DNA of 64,000 bases, taken from Escherichia coli (GTDB lineage: Bacteria; Pseudomonadota; Gammaproteobacteria; Enterobacterales; Enterobacteriaceae). Location: assembly GCF_003334815.1 (NCBI RefSeq), contig NZ_QOWO01000003.1, one strand, 5' to 3'. Both the position numbers and the translations under genes were made by a program. This document shows positions 32,747 to 35,324 of the stretch, piece after piece; the first letter of the stretch is position 1; the number at the start of each line of letters is the position of its first letter. The notes beneath the pieces were generated by a model. It was given only the letters and a program-made list of their open reading frames with translations, did not search any database and had not been told where the DNA came from.

Positions 32747-33009
32747 GTAGGTTCTCCCTAACCATTTCTCAATTAAATAATTAATTTTAATTTATAAGCC
32801 AGATAAATGGGCTTGGTAGTAATAGTTGTTAAAATAACATAAATAGCCGTACTCACTCTATATAAACAGAAAAGAAAGGTTAATTATTGGTGTTAGCTAT
32901 ATAAAAAGTAACAACAGCAATGCATATGAATAATTAAAGGTTATGCAACGGGCAAAGATTAAACTTCCCAGTTTAATGACAGGTTGCTGTACTTGCGTTT
33001 GTTGCTCTT

Positions 33010-33109
33010 GCCGGATGCAGCGTAAACGCCTTATCCGGCCTACAGTTCATTGCAAATCCATTCAATTTCAATGCACGATGTAGGCCTGATAAGCGTAGCG
33101 AATCAGGCA
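33010..33109. repeat. REP elements, two units
   Basis: gccggatgcagcgtaaacgccttatccggcctaca and tgtaggcctgataagcgtagcgaatcaggca between yjeJ and epmB. Confidence 0.7.
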
Positions 33110-33140
33110 ATTTTAATGTTTAACTTCCCTGTTTAATCAG

Positions 33141-34169
33141 TTACTGCTGGCGTAGCTGGAGATCCAGCGGCGTTTTGCTGGGTTCGCCGCCAATTTCTCG
33201 CGCCAGTTTCGGCACCAGATATCCCGACACCAGTGTCAGCAACTCACGCATAATCTGCCGTGCTTCGTCATCACTCACCATAAAATGCGCCGCGCCCTGT
33301 ACTTTATCGAGCACATGCAGGTAATACGGCATTACGCCGGCATCGAACAACGCATTACTCAGGTTTGCCAGCGTTTGTGCGTTATCGTTCACATCACGTA
33401 ACAGAACGCTCTGGTTCAGCAAAGTAACGCCTACCCGGCGCAACTTAGCCATCGCCTGACGGAATGTTTCATCTACCTCATTGGCATGGTTGATGTGATT
33501 CACCAGCAAGATTTGCAGCGTAGAACGGGCAAAGCATTCAACCAGCGCCTCGGTGATACGTGCCGGGATCACAATCGGCAGACGGCTGTGAATCCGCAGA
33601 CGTTTTATATGCGGGATGGCTTCCAGTTGTGTGAGCAACCAGTCCAGCTCGTGATCTTTCGCCATCAGCGGATCGCCGCCGGAGAAAATCATCTCGTCCA
33701 GTTCCGGATGCGCAGCAACATACTCAAGTGCAGTTTGCCAGTTACGCTTGTTGCCCTGATTTTCGGCATAGGGGAAGTGACGACGGAAGCAATAGCGGCA
33801 ATTTACCGCGCAGCCGCCTTTGACCAGCAAAAGCGCCCGGTTGTGGTATTTATGCAACAAACCAGGCACTACGCTGTGCTGTTCTTCCAGTGGGTCGGTG
33901 GAGAATCCGGGCGCGATGACAAACTCATCTTGCGAGGTAAGTACCTGACGCAAAAGAGGATCGTCCGGATTGCCTTTCTCCATGCGATCGATAAATGAGC
34001 GGGGCACACGCAGGGCAAAAAGCTTTTTGGCGCTGCGTCCGGCTAACAGTTTTTCCTCCGCGTCTATATTCAAAAGACGCAGAAGTTCATCAGGATCGGT
34101 CACAACATCGGCAAGTTGCGTTAACCAATCTTCTCTGGATGGGGTATTTAGGGTTACAATATGCGCCAT
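33141..34169 (-). CDS. epmB: EF-P beta-lysylation protein (lysine 2,3-aminomutase, radical SAM)
   Basis: 342 aa; CAVNCRYC radical-SAM cysteine motif; divergent from efp. Confidence 0.92.
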   Translation of the reverse strand: MAHIVTLNTPSREDWLTQLADVVTDPDELLRLLNIDAEEKLLAGRSAKKLFALRVPRSFIDRMEKGNPDDPLLRQVLTSQDEFVIAPGFSTDPLEEQHSVVPGLLHKYHNRALLLVKGGCAVNCRYCFRRHFPYAENQGNKRNWQTALEYVAAHPELDEMIFSGGDPLMAKDHELDWLLTQLEAIPHIKRLRIHSRLPIVIPARITEALVECFARSTLQILLVNHINHANEVDETFRQAMAKLRRVGVTLLNQSVLLRDVNDNAQTLANLSNALFDAGVMPYYLHVLDKVQGAAHFMVSDDEARQIMRELLTLVSGYLVPKLAREIGGEPSKTPLDLQLRQQ

Positions 34170-34210
34170 TTTGTGGCTTAGCTACCAATTAACAAATTTC
34201 AGAGGGCCTT

Positions 34211-34777
34211 ATGGCAACGTACTATAGCAACGATTTTCGTGCTGGTCTTAAAATCATGTTAGACGGCGAACCTTACGCGGTTGAAGCGAGTGAATTCGTA
34301 AAACCGGGTAAAGGCCAGGCATTTGCTCGCGTTAAACTGCGTCGTCTGCTGACCGGTACTCGCGTAGAAAAAACCTTCAAATCTACTGATTCCGCTGAAG
34401 GCGCTGATGTTGTCGATATGAACCTGACTTACCTGTACAACGACGGTGAGTTCTGGCACTTCATGAACAACGAAACTTTCGAGCAGCTGTCTGCTGATGC
34501 AAAAGCAATTGGTGACAACGCTAAATGGCTGCTGGATCAGGCAGAGTGTATCGTAACTCTGTGGAATGGTCAGCCGATCTCCGTTACTCCGCCGAACTTC
34601 GTTGAACTGGAAATCGTTGATACCGATCCGGGCCTGAAAGGTGATACCGCAGGTACTGGTGGCAAACCGGCTACCCTGTCTACTGGCGCTGTGGTTAAAG
34701 TTCCGCTGTTTGTACAAATCGGCGAAGTCATCAAAGTGGATACCCGCTCTGGTGAATACGTCTCTCGCGTGAAGTAA
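34211..34777 (+). CDS. efp: translation elongation factor P
   Basis: 188 aa [38 protein letters not shown] with the modified Lys in the KPGKG loop. Confidence 0.96.
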
Positions 34778-34828
34778 TGCGGTTGTGGTGCGGCCTGCAG
34801 GCTGCACCATCACTTATTCAGGTCAGAG

Positions 34829-34954
34829 ATGATGAAACGCCTTATCGTTCTTGTTTTGCTTGCCAGCACGCTGCTCACGGGCTGTAACACCGCTCGCGGT
34901 TTCGGCGAAGACATCAAACATCTCGGCAACTCCATCTCTCGCGCTGCCAGCTAA
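34829..34954 (+). CDS. ecnA: entericidin A lipoprotein (antidote)
   Basis: Manually translated 41 aa [45 protein letters not shown] lipobox; absent from ORF track. Confidence 0.88.
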
Positions 34955-35064
34955 TTTTTCTTCTCTTCCGAAAAATCATCAGATTCCCATCATTTTTGGC
35001 GATGTTGTCTATTATTAATTTGCTATAGGCAAACATAAATAACATTACCTAAAAGGAAGACGTT

Positions 35065-35211
35065 ATGGTGAAGAAGACAATTGCAGCGATCTTTTCTGTT
35101 CTGGTGCTTTCAACAGTATTAACTGCCTGCAACACCACGCGTGGCGTTGGTGAAGACATTTCTGATGGCGGTAACGCGATTTCTGGCGCAGCAACGAAAG
35201 CGCAGCAATAA
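35065..35211 (+). CDS. ecnB: entericidin B lipoprotein (bacteriolytic toxin)
   Basis: Manually translated 48 aa [48 protein letters not shown], paralogue of ecnA; absent from ORF track. Confidence 0.88.
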
Positions 35212-35218
35212 GCAATAA

Positions 35219-35252
35219 CGGTACGACAGCTGTGTCGTGCCGTTTGTTTTTT
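35219..35252 (+). terminator. intrinsic terminator after ecnB
   Basis: cggtacgacagctgtgtcgtgccg hairpin followed by tttgtttttt. Confidence 0.75.
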
Positions 35253-35324
35253 CTGCGATAGTCACAAAGGTAATAGTTGAAATTCCCCTGCCACCTGGCA
35301 AAATATCCGTTCAACCATCAGCTT

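Follow-up and report, generated by a model that had tools for sequence, protein, structure and literature searches.

The stretch of DNA analysed here (the window) comprises 64,000 nucleotides of Escherichia coli (contig NZ_QOWO01000003.1 of assembly GCF_003334815.1), and it carries the gene for elongation factor P (EF-P) together with the genes for the two enzymes of its beta-lysylation. The coordinates, taken from the open reading frame listing together with the raw sequence, are collected in Table 1. The RefSeq gene order is epmB, efp, ecnA, ecnB, sugE (gdx), blc, ampC, frdD, frdC, frdB, frdA, epmA and yjeM, and the start codon of epmA lies 6377 bp past the stop codon of efp, with nine genes in between according to the ORF list and the annotation. 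The earlier note had described epmB and efp as divergent and 41 bp apart and epmA as lying 6.4 kb downstream beyond the ecn, gdx, blc, ampC and frd genes; this layout was reproduced in full, and the intervening genes occur in identical order in the RefSeq annotation of MG1655. Its further statement that the two enzyme genes are not co-transcribed also stands, epmB being located on the strand opposite to efp and epmA.

Table 1. Features of the EF-P locus and of the interval between efp and epmA, with positions in the window.
Feature	Position	Strand	Description
epmB (yjeK)	33141..34169	-	342 aa; RefSeq annotation epmB; radical-SAM lysine 2,3-aminomutase making (R)-beta-lysine
TACAAT, putative efp -10	34155..34160	+	epmB codons 4-5 read on the efp strand; 51-56 nt before the efp ATG
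epmB-efp divergent spacer	34170..34210	.	41 bp between start codons facing away from each other; contains the efp Shine-Dalgarno sequence AGAGGG
efp	34211..34777	+	188 aa; elongation factor P
Stable hairpin directly 3' of efp	34781..34814	+	RNA fold -22.6 kcal/mol, z = -2.3
ecnA	34829-34954	+	RefSeq annotation; part of the predicted Enterobacterales-level insert 34829..37456
ecnB	35065-35211	+	RefSeq annotation; part of the predicted Enterobacterales-level insert
Guanidine-II riboswitch	35323-35369	+	Rfam RF01068; part of the predicted Enterobacterales-level insert
gdx/sugE	35387-35704	+	RefSeq annotation; part of the predicted Enterobacterales-level insert
blc	35701-36234	-	RefSeq annotation; part of the predicted Enterobacterales-level insert
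ampC	36323-37456	-	RefSeq annotation; end of the predicted insert 34829..37456
frdDCBA	37519..40830	-	Fumarate reductase operon (annotation); probable older insert; convergent with efp, divergent from epmA
frdA-epmA divergent intergenic region	40831..41154	.	324 bp
epmA (poxA/yjeA/genX)	41155..42132	+	325 aa; EF-P--(R)-beta-lysine ligase, paralog of the LysRS catalytic core

In a megablast search against complete E. coli genomes, positions 33000-42300 were 100% identical to E. coli K-12 MG1655, and the whole block was found in 5421 of 5426 complete genomes (at least 80% of 33000-42300 in one place). An Rfam scan of the whole window placed no RNA element within 33141-34777, and the annotation, which covers the whole window, lists no epmC (yfcM), the gene for the hydroxylase; in K-12, epmC is sited elsewhere in the genome. 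The intergenic region between frdA and epmA presumably holds the frd promoter and the epmA promoter as well. Judged from its sequence, the region is the canonical E. coli K-12 gene set for EF-P beta-lysylation.

The identities of all three proteins, as given in the earlier note, were borne out by scores above the cut-offs of NCBIfam equivalog models. EF-P scored 253.6 bits against TIGR00038 (cut-off 185.8) and 269.9 bits against NF001810 (cut-off 161), stayed below the cut-offs of the EfpL/YeiP models (126.4 and 113.3 bits versus 216 and 264), and matched chain w of PDB 6ENJ and chain B of 3A5Z over all 188 residues (E ~1e-125). The KPGKG loop reported earlier occupies residues 31-35, with the K34 codon at 34310-34312. 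The tip of the beta3-beta4 loop is the lysine of PGKG and both EpmA and EpmB co-occur with it, which assigns this EF-P to the lysine-EpmAB type; the motif [FMYI]VKPGKG was present in 49 of 49 EF-P genes near epmA in related loci. EpmB, a radical-SAM enzyme of the KamA family, scored 533.9 bits against the TIGR03821 equivalog (cut-off 369.3) and contains the CxxxCxxC motif as CAVNCRYC. Against AblA it reached 219.6 bits, under the cut-off of 525.4, and the alignment went no further than profile position 325 of 417, which leaves EpmB without the C-terminal domain of LAM; a difference in the C-terminal multimerisation domain between EpmB and true lysine 2,3-aminomutase has been described (PMC2821294). 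EpmA scored 604.4 bits against NF006828 (cut-off 264) and matched chain A of PDB 3A5Z and 3A5Y over all 325 residues (E = 1e-221). LysRS profiles were covered only at positions 169-483 of 488, with scores under their cut-offs, and EpmA is thus a class II LysRS catalytic core without the anticodon-binding domain.

EpmB converts L-lysine to (R)-beta-lysine, and EpmC/YfcM is an optional hydroxylase that is dispensable for function (PMC12856214, PMC11388002). K34 of E. coli K-12 EF-P bears epsilon-(R)-beta-lysyl(-hydroxy)lysine, corresponding to +128 or +144 Da (PMC12856214), and EF-P modified in this way frees ribosomes that have stalled at polyproline. The pathway was predicted from the finding that efp, yjeK and yjeA cluster physically (Bailly & de Crecy-Lagard 2010, PMC2821294). 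Among 200 genomes with both enzymes, that study found all three genes clustered in 31%, two of the three in 60% and no clustering in 9%, and it classed E. coli as 'efp/yjeK only', using it as an example of the efp/yjeK pair.

For the gene-order comparison, which the earlier note had proposed as a check, the flanks of epmA, each up to 10 kb long, were collected from 80 species-representative genomes (one genome per species), and the proteins of the E. coli region were mapped onto the 80 loci by tblastn. Enough upstream sequence was present at 67 loci, E. coli included. At 49 of these 67 informative loci, the divergent pair epmB (reverse) and efp (forward) was located upstream of forward epmA in the same order and orientation; cases in which efp and epmB did not fall within the flank may conceal inserts larger than the 10-kb flank.

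The gap between efp and epmA was 5-128 bp, and empty, in all 18 linked loci of Alteromonadales (13 of 14 loci linked) and of the other Gammaproteobacteria (5 of 6 linked; Hahellaceae, Sulfuriflexus, 'Pseudomonas' saliphila and MAGs). For Vibrionales, linkage was observed at 6 of 12 loci, with a gap of 3.7-5.6 kb containing frdDCBA on the opposite strand and, in Photobacterium, one extra ORF. Linked loci made up 24 of 27 in Enterobacterales and were mostly frd-bearing; where frd was present the gap measured 4.1-8.1 kb and held frdDCBA plus ecnA/ecnB, sugE and blc, and in some of these genomes, including Escherichia, Citrobacter and Enterobacter, also ampC (and ampR). Pantoea and Acerihabitans were linked across 0.6-1.9 kb without frd, and the symbiont Ca. 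Pantoea edessiphila had an empty gap of 90 bp. None of the 6 informative Pasteurellales loci was linked: the divergent frdDCBA-epmA pair was kept, and efp and epmB were not within about 10 kb of epmA.

The position of frdA upstream of epmA on the opposite strand was common to Vibrionales, Pasteurellales and Enterobacterales, with an extra insert of about 3 kb in this arrangement in the two Photorhabdus. Gene-order mapping did not find frdA in the tight clusters of Alteromonadales and outgroups, and in Vibrionales, Alteromonadales and outgroups it placed none of ecnA, ecnB, gdx/sugE, blc and ampC between efp and epmA. Other cargo at the efp-epmA junction comprised guaC with a glyoxalase-like gene in Oceanisphaera, an IS4 transposase in Pectobacterium, the LysR-type ampR in Citrobacter, and ORFs without a family match in Photobacterium and Photorhabdus.

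The backbone around the tight clusters is that of E. coli, with cutA, groS and groL upstream in Pseudidiomarina, and psd, rsgA, orn, queG, nnr and tsaE downstream in 'P.' saliphila, Psychrosphaera and a MAG, among others. For context, a protein-representative search, which brought no functional surprise, supplied six distant EpmA representatives (40-45% identity); in 4 of the 6, efp was located directly upstream on the same strand, and where the contig extends far enough epmB was divergent and psd was downstream. One reduced genome had the order cutA-groES-groEL-epmB<>efp-epmA-psd-orn-miaA, an arrangement equal to that of the E. coli window with the inserts taken out.

We consider it highly probable (about 85%) that the loose linkage in E. 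coli is the relic of a compact cluster, with epmB divergent from efp and epmA following efp, which was spread apart by nested insertions. In the ancestral gammaproteobacterial state, efp and epmA would have been adjacent on one strand, often separated by a terminator, with epmB divergent. The first insertion at the efp-epmA junction would have been frdDCBA, common to Vibrionales and Pasteurellales; the second would have brought ecnAB-gdx-blc (Enterobacterales), and the third ampC (Escherichia, Citrobacter, Enterobacter and relatives), with epmA ending up 6.4 kb away. The polarity of these insertions is inferred by parsimony over taxonomic groupings. If the intervening genes are lineage-level insertions into an older tight cluster, the linkage would be a relic and not a puzzle. 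The earlier note had added that the linkage would be uninteresting if the intervening genes were strain-specific insertions; strain specificity is refuted by the near-universal presence of the block in E. coli, and what holds is lineage specificity at the level of order and family.

The strongest alternative is that selection still holds epmA near efp and epmB, acting for example by way of a shared chromosomal domain, replication-linked dosage or co-regulation, and this we regard as improbable, though worth weighing. It would account for the fact that 24 of 27 informative Enterobacterales keep the order and orientation although the junction has repeatedly taken up inserts, for the renewed adjacency of efp, epmA and epmB in reduced-genome symbionts, and for some degree of clustering in 91% of genomes with both enzymes (Bailly 2010, PMC2821294). 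However, efp and epmB lie within about 10 kb of epmA in 0 of 6 Pasteurellales and in only 6 of 12 Vibrionales, and this loss of linkage without obvious consequence in 6 of 6 Pasteurellales and 6 of 12 Vibrionales argues that proximity is not strongly selected. In E. coli, moreover, the separately regulated opposite-strand operons frd and ampC intervene, so that neither a common transcript nor a shared promoter is possible for efp and epmA. The ancestral backbone from groESL to tsaE is retained and the whole 40-kb region is collinear, and thus no special pressure on efp, epmA and epmB is needed to explain their nearness. Polyproline content was also considered as a possible functional connection of frd with epmA and was rejected, FrdA having a single PP dipeptide.

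It is far less probable that the tight cluster is the derived state, repeatedly assembled or compacted (perhaps as a unit capable of horizontal transfer), and that the split layout with frd is older. EF-P and its modification genes have been reported to move horizontally as units (PMC11388002), and at least one tight cluster is clearly secondary, namely that of Ca. Pantoea edessiphila, whose relatives among the Enterobacterales have the split layout. Yet the tight clusters, found in 5 of 6 informative non-VAAP Gammaproteobacteria and 13 of 14 informative Alteromonadales, share the backbone of E. coli, and a setting with groESL upstream and psd-rsgA-orn downstream is what would be expected from vertical inheritance and not from acquisition. 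Finally, a coincidental nearness of epmA and efp in E. coli without shared history, which the 6.4-kb distance, the nine unrelated genes between them and the lack of co-transcription might suggest, is ruled out by the gene-order series, because the chance that a given gene of a 4.64-Mb genome falls no more than about 7.4 kb from efp in either direction is about 0.3% (by arithmetic), the inserts are graded in size from 5 bp to 8 kb, and the recurrence of the same order and orientation in 49 of 67 loci speaks for linkage by descent.

At all 48 loci in which epmB and efp were both found, epmB was divergent from efp, and the separate transcription of epmB is therefore ancestral and not a peculiarity of E. 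coli. In E. coli, efp and epmA are separated by the opposite-strand units blc, ampC and frdDCBA and by hairpins. In the tight clusters, a GC-rich hairpin with a T-run behind it is present in most efp-epmA spacers, immediately before the epmA start region, as in the Pseudoalteromonas example AAATCCCGGCTTAAGCTGGGATTTTTTTT, and in a few outgroups the gap is just 5-22 bp and the hairpin is absent. The hairpins of the tight clusters suggest attenuated read-through into epmA or a separate weak epmA promoter. In the window, the hairpin at the 3' end of efp has a U-poor tail and was not called by a terminator scan, and it is possibly a weak terminator or a stabiliser.

The codon adaptation index was 0.68 for efp, 0.79 for groL, 0.32 for epmA and 0.31 for epmB, with the weights of Sharp & Li 1987, for which the sole cross-check was a set of weights taken from groL, one gene of the window. 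The codon bias of efp is strong, and epmA and epmB look like weakly expressed genes. The simplest reading is stoichiometric, in which EF-P would be the abundant substrate and EpmA and EpmB would be catalytic and scarce, and this fits with separate transcription units.

The spacer between epmB and efp, measured from start codons extrapolated out of the alignments, was 35-43 bp (median 40) in 23 Enterobacterales, 33-36 bp in 6 Vibrionales and had a median of 41 bp in 13 Alteromonadales. About 40 bp leaves no room for a pair of promoters together with their 5' UTRs. When codons were aligned across 21 Enterobacterales, synonymous-site conservation within epmB was highest in the windows of its first codons: I4 (ATT), V5 (GTA), T6 (ACC) and L7 (CTA, a rare codon) were 100% codon-identical, compared with a gene-wide mean of 0.53. 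Read on the efp strand, codons 4-5 give the hexamer TACAAT, predicted here to be the -10 element of efp. At the corresponding position Photorhabdus has TATAAT and Vibrionales have TATGAT or TATTAT, and in Alteromonadales and several outgroups TATCAT overlaps the epmB start codon. In nearly all lineages, a hexamer of the TAnnAT type coincides with the epmB start or lies immediately inside it.

The conserved -10-like hexamer in the first epmB codons suggests overlapping divergent promoters. An RNA-seq survey of MG1655 with ExcludonFinder lists 16 divergent excludons, in which the 5' transcripts overlap, and epmB-efp is one of them (PMC12288877). A generic sigma-70 scan returned 6 promoter-like sites, fewer than the 10.2 found in shuffles; its sole candidate upstream of efp, at 34043-34070, falls within a poorly conserved part of epmB and was rejected. 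Entries for efp or the epm genes were not found in the SMRT-Cappable-seq supplements. As a tentative proposal, to which we give less than even odds, the embedded efp core promoter and the length-conserved spacer of about 40 bp across Enterobacterales, Vibrionales and Alteromonadales might form an ancient excludon-type device that fixes a high ratio of EF-P to EpmB, with the synonymous sites of epmB constrained by the promoter of its neighbour.

The genes, the pathway and their clustering are textbook E. coli material and already known, and the linkage of efp, yjeK and yjeA was historically the route to the discovery of the pathway (Bailly & de Crecy-Lagard 2010, PMC2821294). Only two points are mildly new, namely the explicit insertion series that would explain the 6.4-kb gap and the conserved, putative promoter-in-gene architecture of epmB-efp. 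From the comparison, the E. coli layout appears as the ancestral efp cluster plus datable insertions (frd, then ecn/gdx/blc, then ampC), and the separate transcription of substrate and enzyme genes appears as an ancestral design. The short conserved divergent spacer with a promoter-like element in epmB may offer a small lead on how the levels of EF-P and EpmB are set.

Compared with the EpmA/EpmB(/EpmC) system of E. coli and Salmonella (YjeA/PoxA/GenX, YjeK and YfcM), the system in the window is the same, without difference, and its EpmA and EF-P align at full length with the chains of 3A5Z, a crystal structure of E. coli GenX-EF-P. With the compact clusters of Bailly 2010 it shares the same three genes, the divergent epmB-efp pair with a spacer of about 40 bp, and the order and orientation of epmA; it differs in that efp and epmA are split by 6.4 kb of unrelated genes in E. 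coli and are hence not adjacent. The E. coli layout is probably a cluster of this type expanded by nested insertions. As for the divergent excludons of PMC12288877, which have overlapping 5' transcripts, the sequence of epmB-efp gives support at its own level: a spacer of 41 bp and, within epmB, a conserved -10-like hexamer. Other modification systems of EF-P and eIF5A include rhamnosylation by EarP (Arg32), 5-aminopentanolation by YmfI, and the deoxyhypusine/hypusine of a/eIF5A. In these systems likewise, a dedicated enzyme extends the residue at the loop tip toward the peptidyl-transferase centre, and the gene for the enzyme usually adjoins efp (PMC12856214, PMC11388002). The system in the window differs from the EarP, YmfI and hypusine systems in its chemistry and enzymes, the tip residue of its EF-P being Lys and not Arg, together with EpmA and EpmB.

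A second LysRS-family gene was observed in the window at about 11712-13229 on the minus strand, about 28 kb away from its paralog epmA, and this gene was labelled lysine--tRNA ligase (lysS) by PGAP. Judging by its position, the gene is the heat-inducible lysU of K-12. A match was also obtained between EpmA and the LysU structure 1E1O (E = 5e-39).

Genes encoding polyproline proteins are also present in the window. The gene cadC (18908-20446, minus strand) encodes a protein with the polyproline motif SSPPPIPE, and the review PMC12856214 counts CadC among the classical proteins that depend on EF-P. In the annotation, cadC is followed by cadB and cadA, encoding the lysine antiporter and decarboxylase, respectively. 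In addition, AmiB (about 54451-55803, plus strand) contains eight prolines in an unbroken run, the translation of which is expected to depend on EF-P.

Some regulatory elements found between efp and epmA are listed in the table below. The hairpin and the promoter match at the end of frdD (37479-37550) match the known ampC promoter and attenuator, which overlap the frd terminator. As located by the Rfam scan, the guanidine-II riboswitch is an already-known element, with gdx/sugE (35387-35704) immediately downstream. The 3' ends of gdx/sugE (plus strand) and blc (minus strand) share 4 bp in the annotation (35701-35704), and this pair is included as a convergent excludon in the list of PMC12288877.

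Regulatory elements between efp and epmA (window coordinates)
Element	Position	Strand	Basis
Guanidine-II (mini-ykkC) riboswitch, RF01068	35323-35369	+	Rfam, 50.4 bits vs gathering score 32
Perfect 9-bp GC hairpin with T-run	37479-37499	-	Hairpin at frdD end, just upstream of ampC
Promoter match 10/12, TTGTCA-16-TACAAT	37550-37523	-	Promoter scan; frdD end, just upstream of ampC

Downstream of epmB, REP/BIME-like palindromic repeats were observed at 32943-33110 (for example, GCCGGATGCAGCGTAAACGCCTTATCCGGCCTAC), and a 40-bp piece of this region (33009-33048) recurs elsewhere in E. coli genomes (megablast match H12). In one E. coli genome, NZ_CM194529.1, the match to the 9.3-kb region (H5) consists of two pieces, divided by an IS621-family transposase that interrupts the region.

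Inserted ORFs were also present at related loci of other species. In Photorhabdus caribbeanensis (locus L022, 7595-9760), the frdA-epmA spacer holds an insertion of three paralogous ORFs in tandem, each 137-152 aa long and with internal repeats (...IALQADNGLYLSRI...), and the one of the three that was searched (7595-8008) had no NCBIfam match. In Photobacterium indicum (locus L037, 4635-6044), an ORF of 469 aa lies between efp and frdD; its C-terminal half is rich in coiled coil, and no NCBIfam match was found for it.

Only two tandem tRNA-Gly(GCC) genes were found in the window (50872-51059, plus strand), whereas three are annotated in the otherwise near-identical K-12 record NZ_CP032667.1. 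In the alignment, a 112-bp unit is absent from the window relative to that record, indicating that the source strain differs from NZ_CP032667.1 by one repeat unit.
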